DNA from: an uncultured Actinomycetota bacterium
GTDB lineage: Bacteria > Actinomycetota > Actinomycetes > Mycobacteriales > CADCTP01
NCBI GenBank assembly: GCA_963728945.1
Contig: CAVSMA010000002.1
Location: 738,723 to 802,722 of the forward strand
Reading direction: 5' to 3'
Length of the DNA stretch: 64,000 nucleotides
Shown: one piece after another, positions 5,581 to 15,082 of the stretch
How the letters are laid out: each line of letters starts with the position of its first letter
Numbering within the stretch: the first letter of the stretch is position 1
Notes under the pieces: generated by a model
Told to the model about the DNA's origin: nothing
The model's input: the letters and a program-made list of their open reading frames with translations, nothing else
The model's database searches: none
Program-made: the position numbers and the translations under genes

Positions 5581-5630
5581 CTGTCGGCCCTGCCCGCGGG
5601 CGGTGGGACGCGACGCGCCGGCGCCCGGCC

Positions 5631-6416
5631 TCAGCCCGGCTTCTCGGCGACGTAGATCGCGGTGCCGGGGACGAGCGCGCCGCGCAGCGGGCTCCACTGG
5701 CCCCACTCCCGGGTGTGCCCGGCCGGCCACTCCGGCTCGATCAGGTCCACCAGCCGGAACCCGGCGGCGACCAGCTCGCGGACCCGGTCGCCGAGGGTCC
5801 GGTGGTGCTCGACGTACACCGGCTCGCCGGCCTCGTCGACCTCGACGTACGGGGAGCGGTCGAAGTACGGCGTGCGGGCGGTGAGCCCGGCCGGGCCGGG
5901 GTCGTCGGGGAACACCCAGCGCAGCGGGTGGGTGGTCGCGAACACCCAGCGCCCGCCGGGCCGCAGCACCCGGGCGACCTCGCGCATCACCGCGGCGGAG
6001 TCGGCCACGAACGGCACCGCGCCGAACGCCGTGCAGGCGATGTCGAACGAGCCGTCCGCGAACGGCAGCCGCTGGGCGTCGGCCTGCACGAGCGGCACCC
6101 GGACGCCGGTCCGGTCGGCCGCGTCGGCGGCGTGCCGCAGCATCACCCCGGACAGGTCGAGCGCGACCGGGCCCGCACCCTGCGTCGCCAGCCAACGGGA
6201 GCACATCGCCGCGCCGGCGCCGACCTCGAGGACCCGCCGCCCGGACACCGCCCCGAGTAGGTGCGCGTCGGCCTCGCGCAGTCCTTCCGGGCACCAGACG
6301 AAATCGACCTCGCCGAGGAAATCACCGTGCTCGGCGAGGTACGCGCCGGCGTCGTGGTCCCACCACGACCGATTTGCCCGCACACTCTGGTCCGCCGTGA
6401 CCGGGTCGTGCGACAC
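5631..6416 (-). CDS. class I SAM-dependent methyltransferase
   Basis: Motif I is VLEVGAGAAMCSRWLA. Also present: LPFADGSFDIACTAFG and LRPGGRWVF. Confidence 0.85.
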   Translation of the reverse strand: MSHDPVTADQSVRANRSWWDHDAGAYLAEHGDFLGEVDFVWCPEGLREADAHLLGAVSGRRVLEVGAGAAMCSRWLATQGAGPVALDLSGVMLRHAADAADRTGVRVPLVQADAQRLPFADGSFDIACTAFGAVPFVADSAAVMREVARVLRPGGRWVFATTHPLRWVFPDDPGPAGLTARTPYFDRSPYVEVDEAGEPVYVEHHRTLGDRVRELVAAGFRLVDLIEPEWPAGHTREWGQWSPLRGALVPGTAIYVAEKPG

Positions 6417-6659
6417 TCCGGCGACAGGTCTCGGTTCGGCAACGCCGGTCAGCGCCGGTCCTCCCTCGTTGCATGTCTGTCGGCGCTCTCAGTATCCTTG
6501 ACAGCGCGCTGTGGGTCTGCGTGCCTCGGTATGGAGCAGGCCACGCTCGTCAAGGATGTCATCTGGCACGTCAGCCGGCGTGCACGGTCTCGTCACCGGC
6601 GAACAACGGGCCCTCGCGTATCGACCTATACCTAGCCCGCGACCGGAGCGCCCCACCAC

Positions 6660-8144
6660 ATGACGTCCACCACCGAGACCCGTCCCGAGCAGACGGCGAC
6701 CTCACCCACGTCCACGACCCCGCAGGTCGCGGTCAACGACATCGGATCGGCGGAGGACTTCGCCGCCGCCGTCGACCAGACGATCAAATACTTCAACGAC
6801 GGCGACATCGTCGAGGGCACGATCGTCAAGGTCGACCGGGACGAGGTCCTGCTCGACATCGGCTACAAGACCGAGGGCGTCATCCCCTCGCGGGAACTGT
6901 CGATCAAGCACGACGTCGATCCCAACGAGGTCGTCAAGCTGGGCGACGAGGTCGAGGCCCTTGTTCTCCAGAAGGAGGACAAGGAGGGCCGGCTGATCCT
7001 GTCCAAGAAGCGCGCGCAGTACGAGCGGGCCTGGGGCACGATCGAGCAGAAGAAGGAGAACGACGAGGTCGTCGAGGGCACCGTCATCGAGGTCGTCAAG
7101 GGCGGCCTGATCCTCGACATCGGCCTGCGCGGCTTCCTGCCCGCCTCCCTCGTCGAGATGCGCCGGGTCCGCGACCTCCAGCCGTACGTCGGCCGGCAGC
7201 TCGAGGCGAAGATCATCGAGCTCGACAAGAACCGCAACAACGTGGTGCTGTCCCGGCGCGCCTGGCTGGAGCAGACCCAGTCCGAGGTCCGCACCGAGTT
7301 CCTCAACAAGCTGGCCAAGGGCCAGGTCCGGACCGGCGTGGTCTCCTCGATCGTCAACTTCGGCGCGTTCGTCGACCTCGGCGGCGTCGACGGCCTGGTG
7401 CACGTGTCCGAGCTGTCCTGGAAGCACATCGACCACCCGTCCGAGGTCGTCGAGGTCGGCCAGGAGGTCACGGTCGAGGTGCTCGACGTCGACCTGGAGC
7501 GCGAGCGGGTCTCGCTGTCGCTCAAGGCGACGCAGGAGGACCCGTGGCGGCAGTTCGCCCGGACCCACCAGATCGGCCAGGTCGTCCCGGGCCGGGTCAC
7601 CAAGCTGGTGCCGTTCGGCGCGTTCGTCCGCGTCGAGGAGGGCATCGAGGGCCTGGTGCACATCTCCGAGCTGGCCGAGCGGCACGTCGAGATCCCCGAG
7701 CAGGTCGTCCAGGTCGGCCAGGAGATCCTGGTCAAGGTCATCGACATCGACCTGGAGCGGCGGCGGATCAGCCTGTCGCTCAAGCAGGCCAACGAGGGCG
7801 CCGGCACCGGCGGCGAGCCGGGCGAGTTCGACCCCGCTCAGTACGGCATGGACGCCCAGTACGACGAGCAGGGCAACTACATCTACCCCGAGGGCTTCGA
7901 CCCGGAGTCGGGGGAGTGGCTGCCCGGCTACGAGACCCAGCGCGAGGAGTGGGAGCGGCAGTATGCCGAGGCCCAGGCCCGCTACGAGGCGCACGTCAAG
8001 CAGGTCCGGGAGGCTCAGGCGGCGGAGGCGGAGGCGACCGGCGAGACGTCCTACAGCACCGACTCGGCCGACTCCGGTGGCACGCTCGCCTCGGACGAGG
8101 CGCTCGCCGCGCTGCGCGAGAAGCTCGCCGGCGGTCGCGCCTAG
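6660..8144 (+). CDS. rpsA: 30S ribosomal protein S1
   Basis: It has four S1 domains (GDIVEGTIVKVDRDEVLLDIGYKTEGVIP, VEGTVIEVVKGGLILDIGLRGFLPAS, VRTGVVSSIVNFGAFVDLGGVDGLVHVSEL, VVPGRVTKLVPFGAFVRVEEGIEGLVHISEL) and an acidic C-terminal tail. Confidence 0.97.
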   Translation: MTSTTETRPEQTATSPTSTTPQVAVNDIGSAEDFAAAVDQTIKYFNDGDIVEGTIVKVDRDEVLLDIGYKTEGVIPSRELSIKHDVDPNEVVKLGDEVEALVLQKEDKEGRLILSKKRAQYERAWGTIEQKKENDEVVEGTVIEVVKGGLILDIGLRGFLPASLVEMRRVRDLQPYVGRQLEAKIIELDKNRNNVVLSRRAWLEQTQSEVRTEFLNKLAKGQVRTGVVSSIVNFGAFVDLGGVDGLVHVSELSWKHIDHPSEVVEVGQEVTVEVLDVDLERERVSLSLKATQEDPWRQFARTHQIGQVVPGRVTKLVPFGAFVRVEEGIEGLVHISELAERHVEIPEQVVQVGQEILVKVIDIDLERRRISLSLKQANEGAGTGGEPGEFDPAQYGMDAQYDEQGNYIYPEGFDPESGEWLPGYETQREEWERQYAEAQARYEAHVKQVREAQAAEAEATGETSYSTDSADSGGTLASDEALAALREKLAGGRA

Positions 8145-8159
8145 CAGCTCACGACGGAG

Positions 8160-8190
8160 GCCCCACCCGACGCGCTCGGGTGGGGCTTCC
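8160..8190 (+). terminator. rho-independent-type hairpin after rpsA
   Basis: GCCCCACCCGA-cgcgc-TCGGGTGGGGC forms an 11-bp perfect stem, followed by ttcc. It lies 16 nt after the rpsA stop. Confidence 0.6.
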
Positions 8191-8246
8191 GCCGTTCCCG
8201 GGCCCGGAGCGCCCGCTCGAGGCGGAGGGGTCGCTACGGTGACCGC

Positions 8247-8882
8247 ATGACGATGCGTTCGTCGGTTGCGCGGTCAAGCTGTGTCCTGGTGCTGGTCGGG
8301 ATCGCCGCGCTCGCCGCGGCGTGTAGTTCGGGCGGGTCCGACCGGTCGCAGGCCGGCGCGACGCAGACCGCCGCCGCGCCGACATCGACCGGCTCGGCCG
8401 CCACGCCCACGCCGACCCCGACGCCGAACCTCCCCGGCGGCTGCGACCAGATGCTCCCGTTCACCGACCTCGACCAGGCTCTCGGCCGCCCCCTGTTCGG
8501 CCCGTCCCGCTACGTGCTCGGCGTCGCCGAGCCGTCCATCGGCCGCACCGGCCGGGTGACCTGCCAGTTCGGCCTGCAGCCGAACGGCCGCGGCGCGGCA
8601 CCGCTCGAGGTCGGCGTCTCCACGTACAAGGATGCCGACTCGGCGAACGAGCGGGTGGCCGCGACCGTGGCCGCCCTGCGGTCCACCGCCACCTCGCAGC
8701 GCAGCGCGACGGTCGCCGGCCAGCAGGCGGTGCTCATCGGCACGAAGAAGGACGACAACCTGGTCGTGGCCCAGGGCGACCGTACGGTCGCGGTGACGAT
8801 CGCCCGCACGCTGCACGTGGCCTCGCTCGACAAGGCGGCGGTCGGTGTGGCCGAGCGGGTGCTGGCCAACTGGGGGCAGTGA
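8247..8882 (+). CDS. lipoprotein of unknown function
   Basis: The signal peptide with lipobox is VLVLVGIAALAAAC-SSGGSD, followed by an Ala/Thr/Pro-rich linker. Confidence 0.65.
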   Translation: MTMRSSVARSSCVLVLVGIAALAAACSSGGSDRSQAGATQTAAAPTSTGSAATPTPTPTPNLPGGCDQMLPFTDLDQALGRPLFGPSRYVLGVAEPSIGRTGRVTCQFGLQPNGRGAAPLEVGVSTYKDADSANERVAATVAALRSTATSQRSATVAGQQAVLIGTKKDDNLVVAQGDRTVAVTIARTLHVASLDKAAVGVAERVLANWGQ

Positions 8883-8942
8883 CCGGCCGGAGCGGGACGG
8901 CCGCCCAGGGCCAGTGACCGGCCGGAGCGGGAGGGCCGGCTA
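8873..8942. repeat. tandem direct repeat, period about 35 bp, two copies, spanning the lipoprotein stop codon
   Basis: cagtgaccggccggagcgggaCggccg at 8877 recurs as cagtgaccggccggagcgggaGggccg at 8912 with one mismatch. Confidence 0.7.
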
Positions 8943-9158
8943 GAGCGAGAAGATCAGGGCGAACGCCGGGCGCGGCCGGGCCCCGCTGCGGGTCAGCGCG
9001 ACGGCGGTGTGGCGACCGCGCCAGCGCAGCATCGACCAGAACGGCAACCGGGTCTCGCGGATGCGGAGCATGACGGCCTCGTGGCTGCGGCAGTGCACCA
9101 GGCCAGGAGTGCCATGCCGGTGGCGTCCCACCGTCGGTGGGCGCCGGTGCTTGGCCAT
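8940..9158 (-). CDS. hypothetical small basic protein
   Basis: The 72-aa ORF has an ATG start. G/C at third positions is high by hand count. No recognisable motif. Confidence 0.35.
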   Translation of the reverse strand: MAKHRRPPTVGRHRHGTPGLVHCRSHEAVMLRIRETRLPFWSMLRWRGRHTAVALTRSGARPRPAFALIFSL

Positions 9159-9282
9159 GTCGCGACCACCTTTCGGCTGGGGAAGCCGTCGCGGCCGGCA
9201 GCCTACGGGCTGACCAGTCGCGATCTTGTGCGGCGCGCCGGGGGATCATCAGCATGTCGACTTCACGCCGTAGGGTCTTGCT

Positions 9283-9888
9283 GTGCAGATCGGGTTGACC
9301 GGCGGGATCGGGTCGGGCAAGTCGACGGTGGCCGGGCGGTTCGCCGAGCTCGGCGCGCTGGTTATCGACGCCGACGCGGTCGCCCGCGAGGTGGTCGAGC
9401 CGGGCACAGACGGGTTGGCCGCGGTGGTCGCCGAGTTCGGCGAGCAGGTCCTGGACGGCTCCGGCCGGCTCGACCGCCCGGCCCTGGCCCGGGTGGTGTT
9501 CGGCGACGAGGACGCGCGCGGCCGGCTCAACGCGATCTTGCACCCGCGGATCCGGGCCCGCGCGGCCGAGCTGATCGCAGCCGCGCCGGCCGGCACGGTC
9601 GTCGTGCAGGACGTGCCGCTGCTGGTCGAGACCGACCAGGCCGACCGGTACGACCTGGTCGTGGTGGTGGAGGCGCCGGCCGACCTGCGGGTCCGCCGGC
9701 TGGCCGAGGATCGCGGCATGCCGGCAGGGGAGGTCAGGGCGCGGATGGCGGCGCAGGCCACCGACGAGCAGCGCCGGGCGGTCGCGGACGTGCTGCTGGT
9801 CAACGACGGCACGACCGACGAGCTGCGGGCGAAGGTCGACGACCTCTGGCGGTCGCGGGTCAGTCCCGGGCCCGGACGGCCAGGATGA
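9283..9888 (+). CDS. coaE: dephospho-CoA kinase
   Basis: The P-loop is IGLTGGIGSGKSTV. Length and layout are typical of CoaE, and the conserved position after rpsA fits. Confidence 0.93.
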   Translation: MQIGLTGGIGSGKSTVAGRFAELGALVIDADAVAREVVEPGTDGLAAVVAEFGEQVLDGSGRLDRPALARVVFGDEDARGRLNAILHPRIRARAAELIAAAPAGTVVVQDVPLLVETDQADRYDLVVVVEAPADLRVRRLAEDRGMPAGEVRARMAAQATDEQRRAVADVLLVNDGTTDELRAKVDDLWRSRVSPGPGRPG

Positions 9889-10147
9889 GGTGGCCGTCGC
9901 CGAGCAGCGCGGCGATCTCCAGCTCGGGGTGCGTGGCGGCCTCGGCCGCGGCCAGCGTCGCCAGCTCTGCCCGTACGGACGGCTGGTCGGCGTAGAGGGA
10001 GTAGCTGGCGTCCTCGCCCGGGTGGACGGACAGCTGCGCCCGCTGGTTGAGCAGCCGCCAGCGGGCCTCCCGCTCGGCCTCGTCCGGCCGGGGCCAGGCG
10101 TCCGGCGGCAGCGGCAGCTCCGGCAGCAGCGCGTCCGCGTCGGTCAC
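9860..10147 (-). CDS. hypothetical 95-aa protein (copy A of a duplicated gene)
   Basis: It has a GTG start and sits 6 nt downstream of the phosphotransferase stop. A paralog of about 88% aa identity by eye lies at 11338..11628. Confidence 0.6.
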   Translation of the reverse strand: MTDADALLPELPLPPDAWPRPDEAEREARWRLLNQRAQLSVHPGEDASYSLYADQPSVRAELATLAAAEAATHPELEIAALLGDGHLILAVRARD

Positions 10148-10153
10148 GGGATG

Positions 10154-11017
10154 CTAGCTGCGGGCCGCCCTGGGCCGCCCGGGCGCCCGCGCCGCCCGGG
10201 ACAGCGCGGGGCGCTCGCGCGCGATCCAGGCGCGGCGGCGGTCGATCGCGTCGCCGACCCCGTCGGCCCACATCCGGGCCCAGCCGCCGCCGAGCGTCCG
10301 CGCGTTGTGCCGCATCAGCAGCCGGCTGCGCCGCCACATCCCGTCGGCGAGGTCGAGCAGCTCCTCCCGCTCCGGCCCCGGCAGCCCGTACGCGTCGAGC
10401 AGCGCGGCGAACCGCGCCGGCACGTCCACGTCCCGCTGCGCCGGCGCCCGGTCGGCCGGGTCGAGCAGCGGCACCCACCACATCGCGGTGGTGAGCAGGT
10501 CGGCGACCCGCCGGGTCGGGCGGGCCAGGTCGAAGTCGACCAGCGCGACCGGGCGCCCGTCCCGGAACACCACGTTCTGCGGGGTCACGTCGCAGTGTGC
10601 GACGAGCTCGGGCGTCCCGGGGAGCGCGGCCAGCTCGGGCGGCATCTCCGGGCCGGCGCGGTCGCGGCCGAACCACGCCAGCTCCGGCGGCGGGTCCCAG
10701 CCGGCGGACGCGTCGTGCAGCTCCCGGACCAGCCGGCCGATCCCGACCACAACCTCGTCGGTGCAGGCCCACGCCTCGGGCGGGGCGCCGGGCACGTCGC
10801 CGGGCACGAAGTCGAGCACGTCCCGCCCCCGGTCGTCGACGCCGAGGAACCGCGGCGCGCCGGCGAACCCGACCCGCTCCAGGTGACCGAGGTACGCGGC
10901 GACGAACGCGGACTGTGGCTGCCGCGGCCGCCGCACCGTGTCGCCGACCCGCACGACCCCCTCGGTGACGTCGCCCTTCGGCAACACGATCTCCACCCCG
11001 TCCCCGAACGCCGCCAC
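10154..11017 (-). CDS. phosphotransferase enzyme family protein (APH/choline-kinase fold)
   Basis: The catalytic-loop-like motif is LVHCDVTPQNVVFRDGRPVALVDFDLA (HxDxxxxN...D). GTG at 11017 is chosen as the start; the upstream part of ORF 10154..11173 is Arg/Pro-rich. Confidence 0.75.
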   Translation of the reverse strand: MAAFGDGVEIVLPKGDVTEGVVRVGDTVRRPRQPQSAFVAAYLGHLERVGFAGAPRFLGVDDRGRDVLDFVPGDVPGAPPEAWACTDEVVVGIGRLVRELHDASAGWDPPPELAWFGRDRAGPEMPPELAALPGTPELVAHCDVTPQNVVFRDGRPVALVDFDLARPTRRVADLLTTAMWWVPLLDPADRAPAQRDVDVPARFAALLDAYGLPGPEREELLDLADGMWRRSRLLMRHNARTLGGGWARMWADGVGDAIDRRRAWIARERPALSRAARAPGRPRAARS

Positions 11018-11140
11018 CCCACCACCCTGCCACCCCGGCCCGGCGCCCGGCCGCGCGGCACGGGCGGGGCGGTAGGGTCCCGGTGCAGTCGGGGTGGCCG
11101 CCGGGCGGCCGCGCGCCGGCGCACCGCTCCGACCGCGGCC

Positions 11141-11298
11141 CGGATCACCCTCGCGTTCGCCGGCGACCTGCACTTCGCCGAGCGCACCGCCACCCGGCTG
11201 GCCGCCGACCCCGGCACCGCCTTCGGCGAGGCCGCCCGGGCGCTGCGGGCGGCCGACCTGACCATGGTCAACCTGGTGACCGCGGTCACCGAGCGCGG
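11141..11298 (+). pseudogene. 5' fragment of a capA-like gene (duplicate of 12006..12162)
   Basis: It encodes RITLAFAGDLHFAERTATRLAADPGTAFGEAARALRAADLTMVNLVTAVTERG. It lacks the signal/TM region and everything after the junction. Confidence 0.7.
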
Positions 11299-11337
11299 TT
11301 CCTGGTCCAAGTGGGTGGGCCGGTCGGGTCGGCGTCC

Positions 11338-11628
11338 TCAGGTGGTCCGGTCGCGGACGGCGAGGATGAGGTGACCGTCGCCGAGCAGGGCGGCGATCTT
11401 CAGCTCGGGATGCGCCGCCGCCTCAGCCGCGGCGAGCGTCGCGAGCTCGGCCCGGACGGCGGGATGGTCGGCATAGAGGGAGTAGCTGGCGTCCTCGCCG
11501 GGGTGCACCGACAGCTGGGCGCGCTGGTTGAGCATGCTCCAGCGCGCCTCTCGCTCGGCCTCGTCCGGGTGCGGGCCGGGGTCCGGCGGCAGCGGCAGCT
11601 CGGGCAGCAGCGCGTCGGCGTCGGTCAC
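11338..11628 (-). CDS. hypothetical 96-aa protein (copy B of the duplicated gene)
   Basis: MTDADALLPELPLPPD...GDGHLILAVRDRTT. The C-terminus differs from copy A exactly at the duplication junction. Confidence 0.6.
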   Translation of the reverse strand: MTDADALLPELPLPPDPGPHPDEAEREARWSMLNQRAQLSVHPGEDASYSLYADHPAVRAELATLAAAEAAAHPELKIAALLGDGHLILAVRDRTT

Positions 11629-12162
11629 GGCCGGCGATGGTAGTGCCGGGCGTCAGAAGTCCTCGCACCGCTTCCCGGCACGAAATCTCTGCGGCGGGCC
11701 CCTGGCGCGCAGCCAGCGGGCGCGCCACCTCCACCCCGTTCCCGAACGTGGCCACCCTCCACCCGGGTCCGAGGGCCGGACCGGGCGGTAGGGTCCGGCG
11801 GTGCATGCGGGGCAGGCGCCTCGGCGCGGACCGGGCCCGGGCACCTGGGTCACGGTGGTCGCCGCGGTCCTCCTGGTGACCGGCGGTCTCGTCACGCTCG
11901 CGCGCAGCATCCGGCCGGCCGACCGGGCCACGATCGCCGCGCCGGCGCCGACCGCCGCGGCGGCCGCGCCCACCCCGGCGCCGACGACCAGCCGACCCGC
12001 CGCCCGGATCACGCTCGCGTTCGCCGGCGACGTGCACTTCGCCGAACGCACCGCGGCCCGGCTCACCGCCGACCCGGACACCGCGTTCGGCGAGGCCGCC
12101 ACCGCTCTGCGCGCGGCCGACCTCACCATGGTCAACCTGGAGACCGCCGTCACCGAGCGCGG
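11354..12162. repeat. segmental duplication, copy B (small ORF + about 35-bp phosphotransferase N-terminal remnant + intact capA 5' end)
   Basis: See copy A. Of the phosphotransferase, only ...VATFGNGVEV (about 11726-11760, minus strand) survives. Confidence 0.8.
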
Positions 12163-12928
12163 CAGCCCGGAGCCGAAGGAGTTCCACTTCCGCACCCCCG
12201 CGACCGCGTTCACGGCACTGCGCGCGGCCGGTGTCGACGTGGCGACGATGGCAAACAACCACGCCGCCGACTACGGCGCGGTCGGTCTCTCCGACACGCT
12301 GGCCGCGATCAAGTCGACCCGCTTCCCGACGATCGGGATCGGCGCCGACGCCGGGCGGGCGTACGCGCCGTACTACGTGACCGTCCGCGGCCACCGCGTC
12401 GCTCTGCTCGCGGCCAGCCAGATCCGCGACCGCACGCTCAGCGCCTGGACCGCCGGACCGACCTCGGCCGGCATCGCCTCCGCGTACGACGACCGGCTGA
12501 TCGCCGCCGTCCAGGCGGCCCGCGACCAGGCCGAGATCGTCGTCGTCTACCTGCACTGGGGCGTCGAGGGCCAGGGTTGCCCGAGCGGCGACCAGCGCGC
12601 TCTCGCCTCCCGGCTCGCCGCGGCCGGCGCCGACGCCGTCGTCGGCACGCACGCCCACCTGCTGCTCGGCGCCGGTTACCTCGGCTCGACCTACGTCGCG
12701 TACGGGCTGGGCAACTACCTCTGGTGGCGCAACTCCGCGTACTCCGACGACACCGGGGTGCTGCGGCTGACCTTCGCCGGTCGGCGGGTGGTCGGTGCCG
12801 CCCTGGCGCCGGCCCGGATCGACGGGCGCGGCGTGCCCGTGCCGGCCACCGGCGGCACCGCCGCCCGGATCCAGCAGAAGTGGGCCGGCCTCGCCGGCTG
12901 CACCGGCCTGGCGGCCCGAGCGTCCTGA
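11801..12928 (+). CDS. CapA-family protein (poly-gamma-glutamate-synthesis-type metallophosphatase fold)
   Basis: ITLAFAGDVHF, LTMVNLETAVTERG, ATMANNHAADYG, VVYLHWGVE and VVGTHAHLL are all typical CapA motifs. An N-terminal TM anchor is present. Confidence 0.85.
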   Translation: MHAGQAPRRGPGPGTWVTVVAAVLLVTGGLVTLARSIRPADRATIAAPAPTAAAAAPTPAPTTSRPAARITLAFAGDVHFAERTAARLTADPDTAFGEAATALRAADLTMVNLETAVTERGSPEPKEFHFRTPATAFTALRAAGVDVATMANNHAADYGAVGLSDTLAAIKSTRFPTIGIGADAGRAYAPYYVTVRGHRVALLAASQIRDRTLSAWTAGPTSAGIASAYDDRLIAAVQAARDQAEIVVVYLHWGVEGQGCPSGDQRALASRLAAAGADAVVGTHAHLLLGAGYLGSTYVAYGLGNYLWWRNSAYSDDTGVLRLTFAGRRVVGAALAPARIDGRGVPVPATGGTAARIQQKWAGLAGCTGLAARAS

Positions 12929-13019
12929 GTCACCCGGCGGCCCGCCGAATCGCGTGGATGTGCGATGCGGGCAGCCGCCGTCGCGGCGGAACGTCGATGG
13001 TGACCGCAGCTCACCCTGA

Positions 13020-13343
13020 AGGGAAGCCCGATCCGCACGCACGCACTGGCGGGTCGCCACCCCCGACGCCGTATCCTCGCCCGCTGCCGGTGGCCGCCCG
13101 GCGACGCTGCCGGCATCCGAGCCCGGCGTCACCGGCAAGCTCGGCAGCACGACCGGATCCGACGGCAACCGCCAGCTCACCGTCGCCGGCCACCCCGTAT
13201 ACACGTTCACCGGCGACTCCGCACCCGGGCAGACGGCCGGTCAGAACGTGGTGCTCAACGGTGGCCTGTGGACGGTCGTCTCACCGGCCGGCGCGCCGGT
13301 GCGGACAGCGGCCACCGCCGGCAACTCCGGCCCCTCGTACTGA
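13020..13343 (+). pseudogene. C-terminal remnant of a COG4315-type lipoprotein (Yx(FWY)xxD repeat)
   Basis: The frame is open from the stop at 13017-13019 to TGA 13341-13343, with no ATG and no usable GTG. It encodes KLGSTTGSDGNRQLTVAGHPVYTFTGDSAPGQTAGQNVVLNGGLWTVVSPAGAPV, i.e. one repeat only. The signal peptide and first repeat are absent. Confidence 0.5.
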
Positions 13344-13356
13344 GCGGGGGGACGTC

Positions 13357-13755
13357 ATGTCGGACCTGACCGCCGTCCCGGGACGGCTGTTCATCCTCGG
13401 CGACCGGCTCACCGTCGACATCGTCGACTGCACCGTCACGATGTGGCGGCGCGGCGAGGAGATCCCGGTCCTCGAGCTGCTGCTCTCCCACGGCCCCGAC
13501 GCCACGACCGCCGTGGCCCTCGACGCCGACCTCGTCGCGGCGGGGTTGCGTGGCCGGACCACGGCCGGCCGGGTCGTCGTCTGGCCGTGTCCCGAGGACG
13601 AGGTGCTCTGCATCGGGCTGCGCGGGCGGCGGGCCAGCGTGCTGGAACTGCCATACGAGCCGGTCGCCGCGCTGCTGGGCGGCGCCGGCCCGCACGGCGC
13701 CGCCCGCGGTCAGCTCGCCAGCCGCTCGGCGAGGAAGCGGAGCGCGAGCGGGTAG
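13357..13755 (+). CDS. hypothetical protein, distantly SsgA-like (SALP) by eye
   Basis: ATG 13357. G/C at third positions is near-total. LVAAGLRGRTTAGRVVVWPCPEDEVLCIGLRGRRASVLELPYEPVAALL resembles LAADGLTEPAGDGDVRIWP...VYIELRSPSGRALLAVPRAVLAGFV in the ssgB-like gene at 29592. Confidence 0.45.
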   Translation: MSDLTAVPGRLFILGDRLTVDIVDCTVTMWRRGEEIPVLELLLSHGPDATTAVALDADLVAAGLRGRTTAGRVVVWPCPEDEVLCIGLRGRRASVLELPYEPVAALLGGAGPHGAARGQLASRSARKRSASG

Positions 13756-14809: not shown

Positions 14810-14882
14810 GCGGACGTGGCTCAGTTGGTAGAGCATCACCTTGCCAAGGTGAGGGTCGCGGGTTCGAATCCCGTCGTCCGCT
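14810..14882 (+). tRNA. tRNA-Gly (GCC)
   Basis: The acceptor is gcggacg/cgtccgc. The anticodon arm is tcacc-ttGCCaa-ggtga. The T-loop is ggttcgaatcc. Confidence 0.93.
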
Positions 14883-14934
14883 CGGAGACGCCCTCGGGTG
14901 TCCTGTCGGTCTCCCGAGGTCACTCGGGCTTCCT

Positions 14935-15006
14935 GGCGGAGTGGCCGAGTGGCATAGGCAAGGGCCTGCAAAGCCCTGTACGCGGGTTCGATTCCCGCCT
15001 CCGCCT
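14935..15006 (+). tRNA. tRNA-Cys (GCA)
   Basis: The acceptor is ggcggag/ctccgcc. The anticodon arm is agggc-ctGCAaa-gccct. The T-loop is ggttcgattcc. Confidence 0.92.
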
Positions 15007-15007
15007 C

Positions 15008-15082
15008 GGGCGCTTAGCTCAGCGGGAGAGCGCTTCCCTGACACGGAAGAGGTCACTGGTTCAATCCCAGTAGCGCCCACCA
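15008..15082 (+). tRNA. tRNA-Val (GAC), CCA encoded
   Basis: The acceptor is gggcgct/agcgccc. The anticodon arm is cttcc-ctGACac-ggaag. The T-loop is ggttcaatcc. The 3' end is acca. Confidence 0.93.

Follow-up and report, generated by a model that had tools for sequence, protein, structure and literature searches.

How did an actinobacterium come to carry the same short gene twice in a row, once beside an intact kinase gene and once beside the remains of one? The question is raised by a locus downstream of coaE, the gene for dephospho-CoA kinase, in a 64,000-nucleotide (nt) stretch of contig CAVSMA010000002.1 (assembly GCA_963728945.1) of an uncultured Actinomycetota bacterium; this whole stretch is called the window below. 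Two copies of a small open reading frame (ORF), here small ORF A and small ORF B, lie one after the other, the first in a segment (copy A) with an intact gene for an APH-fold kinase and a 5' fragment of capA, the second in a segment (copy B) with a scar of the kinase gene and an intact capA. A preliminary description had read this arrangement as a duplication within the genome followed by reciprocal decay. Comparison with related loci does not sustain that reading: the copies are not sisters, coaE switches ancestry, and the kinase scar is already found in two single-copy loci, L017 and L018. The locus was probably formed in one event of homology-facilitated illegitimate recombination with DNA of a related lineage, and the tandem pair is likely to consist of a resident locus and a xenologous neighbor copy rather than of two paralogs.

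The tandem repeat itself is confirmed as genuine and lies well past chance. When the region was searched against itself with BLASTN, one arm (9866-10149 against 11347-11630) matched at 87.4% over 285 nt (E 1.9e-92) and another (11109-11298 against 11975-12162) at 86.4% over 191 nt (E 2.5e-56), with shorter matches at the kinase N-terminus (10991-11027 against 11729-11764, 86.5%) and across the intergenic region and capA start (11057-11125 against 11774-11845, 77%). A repeat search agreed, both direct repeats being collinear, adjacent, and in the same internal order. The preliminary description, which placed the repeat at 9873-11298 and 11354-12162, thus had the anatomy right: two tandem copies with an intact small ORF in each, a 5' fragment of capA, and a kinase scar. 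The two small proteins are indeed about 88% identical, and the peptide pair VAAFGDGVEIV and VATFGNGVEV reported for the kinase N-terminus proved correct on translation.

The related loci were drawn from three sources. L001 and L002 are GTDB genomes, L003-L011 and L019-L024 are contigs encoding homologs, and L012-L018 are seven metagenome loci recovered by means of a conserved DNA pattern, among them the key loci L014, L017, and L018; the samples from which L017 and L018 derive are different ones. The GTDB genome scan, made with small ORF A as a single protein, yielded at least two loci, and the peptide patterns used were specific to copy A. The nearest metagenome-assembled genomes are labelled Mycobacteriales or Actinomycetota, and the small-ORF family, which is narrow and well conserved, comprises 55 clusters of proteins of about 95-120 amino acids (aa), all labelled hypothetical, with 17 invariant residues. 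In contigs that span the whole neighborhood the order is coaE, small ORF, kinase, capA, the last two genes being divergently transcribed; the exceptions are L006 and L007, where capA lies further away, and several loci in which the kinase gene is disrupted. Kinase and small ORF form an operon, with a 4-bp overlap in L005 and L006. No second small-ORF copy was present in any fetched relative locus, the contigs long enough to show one being L002-L007, L012, L014, and L017-L024. The unduplicated state, which the preliminary description had suggested seeking in related genomes, therefore exists, for instance in L017 and L018.

Against this background, the two small ORFs do not behave as products of a duplication. 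Over the 265 ungapped columns of the small-ORF alignment, A and B are 86.8% identical in nucleotides, the lowest value among the near relatives, whereas A is 92.8 and 93.6% identical to L008 and L009, and B is 94.3% identical to L010 and 91.3% to L002. Over 11347-11649, B is 96.0% identical to L017/L018, with one amino-acid difference in small ORF B. Neighbor-joining bootstraps place B with L010 (90%) and A with L001, L003, L006, L008, and L009 (87%); the copies are not the mutual closest relatives that paralogs from a tandem duplication would be. Their synonymous divergence (dS) is 0.44. The C-termini, which had been thought to diverge at the junction, are each a lineage trait found in other genomes. 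An end in ...RD before the stop codon, overlapping the 3' end of coaE, is shared by A and the genomes grouped with it (clade I), L001, L003, L008, and L009 among them, the overlap of small ORF A with coaE being 29 nt as in the clade I genomes; an end in ...R(T/P)(T/A/I) before the stop codon, followed by a spacer, is shared by B, L002, L005, L010, L011, L014, L015, L017, and L018 (clade II).

The same partition runs through the neighboring genes. Gene by gene, rpsA, the lipoprotein-like gene, and the distal part of capA are closest to L002/L005, and coaE, small ORF A, and the kinase gene are closest to L008/L003, the kinase gene being 95.1% identical in nucleotides to that of L008 and 90.1% to that of L014. 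Informative sites divide into 148 backbone-type (clade II) against 19 other-clade (clade I) at 5600-9299 and into 9 against 73 at 9300-11039; downstream of the joint the backbone type is again the majority and the other clade the minority. Compared with L017/L018, identity is about 94-99% in the left flank (8000-9317), 84-85% in the coaE body (9318-9849), and 96-97.5% in the right flank (11347-13082; 88% in the non-coding scar), and the mismatches to L017 number 44 of 1314 (3.3%), 86 of 532 (16.2%), and 61 of 1734 (3.5%), respectively. A two-breakpoint maximum chi-square scan gave its best partition at 9315-11201 (chi-square 110.6), a value reached in none of 300 permutations (maximum 22.8); the left breakpoint fell at 9312|9315 and the right at 11201-11212, beyond which few informative sites remain. 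Synonymous divergence tells the same: coaE stands at 0.47 from L017 and 0.20 from L008, the backbone at 0.06-0.08 from L017, and capA at 0.061 from L017, while small ORFs A and B stand as far apart as donor and recipient do at coaE. Between the lineage that was displaced and the one that displaced it, nucleotide identity is about 85-90%. A tandem duplication would leave both copies and the unique DNA beside them with the ancestry of the backbone, which is not the case here, and coaE reads as a chimera in which codons 1-11 are resident and the remainder is donor-type. Among the kinase homologs, the closest by protein sequence, cluster P0056 (93% aa identity), was considered as a donor and rejected; it comes from L019-L024, loci of the backbone lineage whose kinase is intact.

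The scar beside copy B is older than the repeat. In it the kinase stop codon is mutated from TAG to TAC, a filler of 83 bp occupies 11646-11728, and ~9 codons from the start of the kinase gene are left at 11729-11755. L017 and L018 are collinear with 11289-13082 at 95.6% and share with it the loss of the kinase body, the filler, and the altered stop codon (TAG to TAC), all in a single-copy locus beside a backbone-type coaE; apart from the window, the filler was found only in these two loci. Because deletion and filler already exist in single-copy loci, the scar predates copy A and is not decay that followed a duplication. The kinase is intact in L014, L015, and L019-L024, which belong to the same sub-lineage as L017/L018. 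As for the origin of the filler, neither the kinase gene nor other parts of the window nor the IS630-type end of L010 contained a match to it. Losses of the kinase recur in the family: in L002 (5181-5986) the gene is replaced by ~800 bp with three ~30-nt repeats, and in L010 (1-338) the small ORF has the end of an IS630-type transposase gene 43 nt upstream of it. The kinase has therefore been lost in three independent ways (L002; L010; L017/L018 together with the window), with the small ORF intact each time, and small ORF B is an orphan because the kinase gene upstream of it was deleted.

Both junctions can be placed closely. At the left, all informative sites of the anchor up to 9312 are of the clade II type, and the clade I type begins with the site at 9324; both positions fall within coaE codons 11-14 (the P-loop), and the crossover adjoins a stretch that is 96-100% identical to the backbone relatives L017 and L014. 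At the right, the window at 11289-11298 reads gtcaCCGAGCGCGG followed by ttcctgg. The capA sequence reads gtcaCCGAGCGCGG followed by cagccc and carries CCGAGCGCGG at the very position at which the fragment ends; in the recipient-type spacer, ccgcCCGAGCGG is followed by gtttcg in L017 and by tcccgc in L014 and L010, and the native spacer 3' of the small ORF contains CCGAGCGG. Common to capA and the recipient-type spacer is CCGAGCG(C)GG, a GC-rich and imperfect match of 7-10 nt. BLAST collinearity with the single-copy loci L017/L018 begins at 11289; from ~11313-11316 rightwards the window matches the native spacer of L014/L015/L010 at 93-94%, and the ~15 nt at 11299-11315 align weakly, mainly to L017. 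Over 11289-11346 as a whole, identity is 93-95% to L014/L015/L002 and 77.6% to L017. What had been taken for a 55-bp novel junction (11299-11353) is thus largely resident spacer, alignable to that of L014, L015, L010, L002, and L017. A possible sharing of the capA-fragment junction by L010 was rejected, the tail score of 14 against a background mean of 15.9 not being significant; the resemblance arises because the native spacer carries the CCGAGCGG motif.

The capA fragment is the only part of the locus that decayed in place. Alignment to L003, L002, L005, and copy B revealed a deletion of ~150-200 nt that encoded the N-terminal membrane segment, in agreement with the preliminary description, which had noted the loss of the signal and transmembrane-coding region. 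The fragment is out of frame with the old GTG at 11083, and no start codon is present in the correct frame. It is 88-89% identical to 11997-12162 and carries L003-like states as well as 11 private substitutions, compared with 3 in copy B; states foreign to the resident type (CTG at 11262-11264, GCG at 11279-11281) extend to ~20 nt from the joint. The resident capA is 97.2-97.5% identical to that of L017, and capA is intact in every relative examined.

In the event that we propose, the recipient would have resembled L017/L018, with rpsA, the lipoprotein-like gene, the 72-aa ORF, coaE, a spacer, small ORF B, the kinase scar, and capA in this order, its kinase gene having been deleted beforehand. 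The donor would have been linear DNA of a related lineage, for which L008, L009, and L003 are the closest sampled representatives, bearing coaE, small ORF A, the APH-fold kinase gene, and the first ~120 codons of capA. Its left end would have been joined by homologous recombination in the conserved start of coaE (9313-9323), and its right end by an illegitimate join in which CCGAGCGCGG in capA paired with CCGAGCGG in the recipient spacer, ~40 nt past the stop codon of small ORF B. Some 1.97 kb of donor DNA would thereby have taken the place of ~0.69 kb in the recipient, a stretch made up of most of coaE and roughly 125 nt of spacer. Such an exchange would leave the sole coaE of the window a chimera, restore an intact operon of kinase and small ORF, turn the resident small ORF into a second copy, and leave the truncated donor capA as a pseudogene, which in a later step would have lost the region for its membrane segment and its reading frame. 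The repeat, the mosaic ancestry, the two junctions, the recipient-type state in single copy, and the older scar are features of the sequences themselves; the single-event mechanism and the route by which the DNA entered are what we infer.

Homology-facilitated illegitimate recombination is known from Streptococcus pneumoniae, Acinetobacter baylyi, and Pseudomonas stutzeri and also from Escherichia coli conjugation, and it combines one homologous end with a microhomology of 3-10 bp at the other and an insertion with a deletion of ~1 kb (PMC3240628). All of these traits are seen in the window: one end lies in a homologous stretch (crossover at 9312-9324), the other at a microhomology within that size range (11289-11298), and a kilobase-size foreign insertion is coupled to a recipient deletion, with 1971 nt in and about 686 nt out when L017 serves as the recipient proxy. 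Unlike the experimental cases, the event is deduced here from natural sequences of an uncultured actinobacterium. The tail of the foreign DNA, moreover, has homologs in the resident genes downstream of it, which gives the product the look of a tandem duplication. A further criterion of the mechanism is that linear DNA which has entered the cell by uptake or transfer integrates in a RecA-dependent way.

How well do other histories account for the same sequence? A tandem duplication within the genome of the small ORF, the kinase gene, and the capA 5' end, with later divergence and reciprocal decay, would explain why the direct repeats share order and orientation and why the joint runs from the end of one unit to the start of the next. 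Bacterial tandem segmental duplications mediated by microhomology do consist of head-to-tail repeats joined at a short microhomology, and the window has both; however, such a duplication predicts neither copies that are not sisters nor a left flank that changes ancestry. A and B are each nearer to other genomes than to one another, their dS of 0.44 contrasts with 0.06-0.08 between the backbone and L017, which has no duplicate, and coaE, which lies outside the supposed unit, switches ancestry together with copy A. With the kinase deletion already present in single-copy L017/L018, rather than arising in B after a duplication, and with the two C-terminus types being separate lineage traits, this history is highly improbable. 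A compromise in two steps, in which the resident locus was first duplicated through the same CCGAGCG microhomology and copy A and coaE were then overwritten by homologous recombination, leads to an identical final structure, and it gains something from the CGCGG with which the capA fragment ends, a resident state, and from the right breakpoint of the chi-square scan at 11201-11212, though few informative sites lie beyond it. Yet it needs two rare events where one suffices, and the capA fragment is only 85-88% identical to resident-type capA, compared with 97% between copy B and L017; as non-resident states persist up to ~20 nt before the joint, only those last ~20 nt would be left for the second crossover. 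We regard this course of events as unlikely.

The structure could also be a chimera made in assembly, with contigs or reads of two co-occurring related populations stitched together. In favor of this, the relatives are all metagenomic, the sequence around the left switch hardly differs between the lineages, and exact look-ups of the window's two small proteins matched no other assembly. The imperfect microhomology of 7-10 nt at the right joint, however, is too short for assembly by k-mers or overlaps to bridge, and the capA fragment is decayed by deletion, frameshift, and private substitutions; as capA is intact in every relative examined, no living capA gene was the source of such a fragment. 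An artifact therefore seems quite improbable, somewhat more so than the two-step history. Several points nonetheless weigh against the single exchange with related-lineage DNA. The structure is taken from an assembly, and the comparators are all metagenome contigs that could themselves be mosaics. The phylogeny of the capA fragment (164 columns) lacks resolution, and polarized diagnostic sites were used in its place. The terminal CGCGG of the fragment is a resident state too, and the donor proxies are only 92-95% identical, a donor with this capA being unsampled, so that the last ~20 nt before the joint are unassignable.

The features of the locus are collected in Table 1.

Table 1. Features of the coaE-capA locus, in window coordinates.
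Feature	Position	Strand	Remarks
rpsA	6660-8144	+	
Lipoprotein-like gene	8247-8882	+	
Homologous anchor, backbone-type	8900..9317		Conserved 72-aa ORF, intergenic region, coaE codons 1-11; 96-100% identity to L017/L014
Conserved 72-aa ORF	8940-9158	-	
coaE (dephospho-CoA kinase, 201 aa)	9283-9888	+	Pfam CoaE 2.2e-58, NCBIfam NF002879
Left crossover interval (proposed homologous recombination)	9313..9323		Within coaE P-loop codons
Small ORF A, 95 aa, donor-type copy	9860-10147	-	
APH-fold kinase, 287 aa from GTG at 11017, donor-type, intact	10154-11017	-	PF01636 2.8e-9
Donor-type divergent intergenic region and remnant of capA start (GTG 11083)	11018..11132		
capA' pseudogene fragment, ~55 conserved codons	11133-11298	+	Ends at joint
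Proposed illegitimate joint at microhomology CCGAGCGCGG	11289..11298		
Resident spacer 3' of small ORF B	11299..11337		Aligns to coaE/small-ORF spacer of L014, L015, L010, L002, L017
Small ORF B, 96 aa, resident copy	11338-11628	-	
Kinase scar and old divergent promoter region	11629..11800		Collinear with single-copy L017/L018
capA, 375 aa, resident, intact	11801-12928	+	PGA_cap 8.3e-68

Several observations on the surroundings stand apart from the history of the repeat. The stretch at 8940-9282, which holds the 72-aa ORF (without a Pfam family) and the intergenic region up to coaE, is 90-100% identical among near relatives and is better conserved than the lipoprotein-like gene upstream or the coaE body downstream; the ORF is annotated as a gene in L003/L005/L006/L008. 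The coaE product is of the short, single-domain form, matching the first 196 of the 395 positions of the NF002879 model. Beyond capA, the interval to an esterase gene (12930-13700) is poorly conserved, with 79-86% identity to L002, 95.7% to L019, and no alignable counterpart in L003/L005, and it appears to be a variable gene or region. Genes for tRNA-Gly(gcc), tRNA-Cys(gca), and tRNA-Val(gac) are clustered at 14810-15082 on the plus strand; the cluster is 100% identical to that of L002/L005, and its three tRNAs were the only nearby Rfam matches. A scan of the high-GC region for promoter and terminator consensus sequences gave no matches. In the more distant relatives L006 (3200-6004) and L007 (2509-5325), the APH-fold domain forms the C-terminal third of a protein of 934-938 aa that has no other Pfam match, and the gene still overlaps the small ORF by 4 bp.

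What, then, do the acquired and resident genes encode, and are they maintained? The kinase belongs to the APH family (PF01636) by a score of 37.6 bits against a gathering cut-off of 23.2, and its translation shows the kinase motifs HCDxxxxN and DFD; its homologs bear the JGI label 'RdoA (MazF antagonist)', a name at the COG level only. Its gene lies 6 nt upstream of small ORF A. The ratios of non-synonymous to synonymous substitution rates (dN/dS) are 0.13-0.22 for the kinase and 0.21-0.25 for coaE, and both acquired genes look functional. For the small ORF, the dN/dS of 0.15 between A and B mostly measures ortholog-like divergence between two lineages and says little about their time in one genome. 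The branch of B has one non-synonymous and five synonymous changes (P about 0.007 by hand calculation for at most one in six under neutrality), and B is thus still constrained without its kinase. The branch of A has four of each, among them the replacement of His55 by Gln (H55Q) in the motif YSLYADHP, a histidine conserved in at least 90% of the family, and copy A also carries the change G18W; copy A is intact, and constraint on it has possibly been relaxed. The suggestion in the preliminary description that two intact small ORFs hint at selection accordingly finds support in B and weaker support in A. Both are presumably expressed.

Searches of Pfam, NCBIfam, PADLOC, and PDB sequences with the small protein gave no match. 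An AlphaFold2 model suggests a small alpha/beta sandwich (predicted local distance difference test score, pLDDT, 72.8), with which Foldseek returned no match below an E value of 0.03. By analogy, kinase and small protein might interact with each other, in the manner of a toxin and its antidote or of an enzyme and its regulator, an idea that we consider unlikely. If they did, the small protein would have been kept by selection after the kinase was lost, and a new module of kinase and partner would have landed beside the orphan, as in effector-immunity arrays of type VI secretion systems (T6SS). The three independent kinase losses with an intact small ORF, the purifying selection on orphan B, and the re-acquisition of an intact pair all fit this idea, but recurrent arrays of orphan partner genes across genomes did not appear, as none of the relatives has a second copy in its locus.

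The parallel with T6SS loci deserves to be drawn with care. The same recombination mechanism has been proposed for the orphan immunity-gene arrays of the Vibrio cholerae T6SS and for C-terminal displacement in Rhs and contact-dependent inhibition loci (PMC5361080). As in those systems, an incoming module would here have displaced resident sequence upstream, and a small downstream gene is kept as an orphan beside the module. Unlike them, no relative has an array at this locus, the loss of the resident kinase preceded the arrival of the new module and was not a displacement by it, and the roles of toxin and immunity protein could be assigned to kinase and small protein by analogy only. Another point of reference is xenologous gene displacement in situ, reportedly described by Omelchenko and colleagues in 2003, together with the expansion of gene families by transfer rather than duplication, which Treangen and Rocha are said to have documented in 2011. 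The resemblance is that coaE was replaced in place by the version of another lineage and the extra small ORF is a xenolog, not a paralog; the difference is that here the two junctions, as well as a recipient state close to the ancestral one, are resolved to the base pair and that the lineages are close relatives. The best reading of the locus is thus a known kind of event in a new setting, a pseudo-duplication through lateral acquisition of a homologous segment.

This reading has consequences for annotation and for inferences about evolution, since what looks like a textbook "tandem duplication with reciprocal decay" may hide a resident locus and a lateral homolog, and dN/dS values or dates computed between the two copies would then gauge the divergence of species and not evolution after a duplication. 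The locus would represent a footprint left in nature by homology-facilitated illegitimate recombination, in an uncultured actinobacterium of high GC content whose near-ancestral recipient state has also been sampled; to our knowledge, natural examples resolved to the base pair appear uncommon. For the organism itself, the event would have exchanged most of an essential gene, coaE, for a foreign version and restored a kinase operon that its lineage had lost. It also draws attention to an uncharacterized but conserved protein of 95 aa that survives the repeated loss of its partner kinase.

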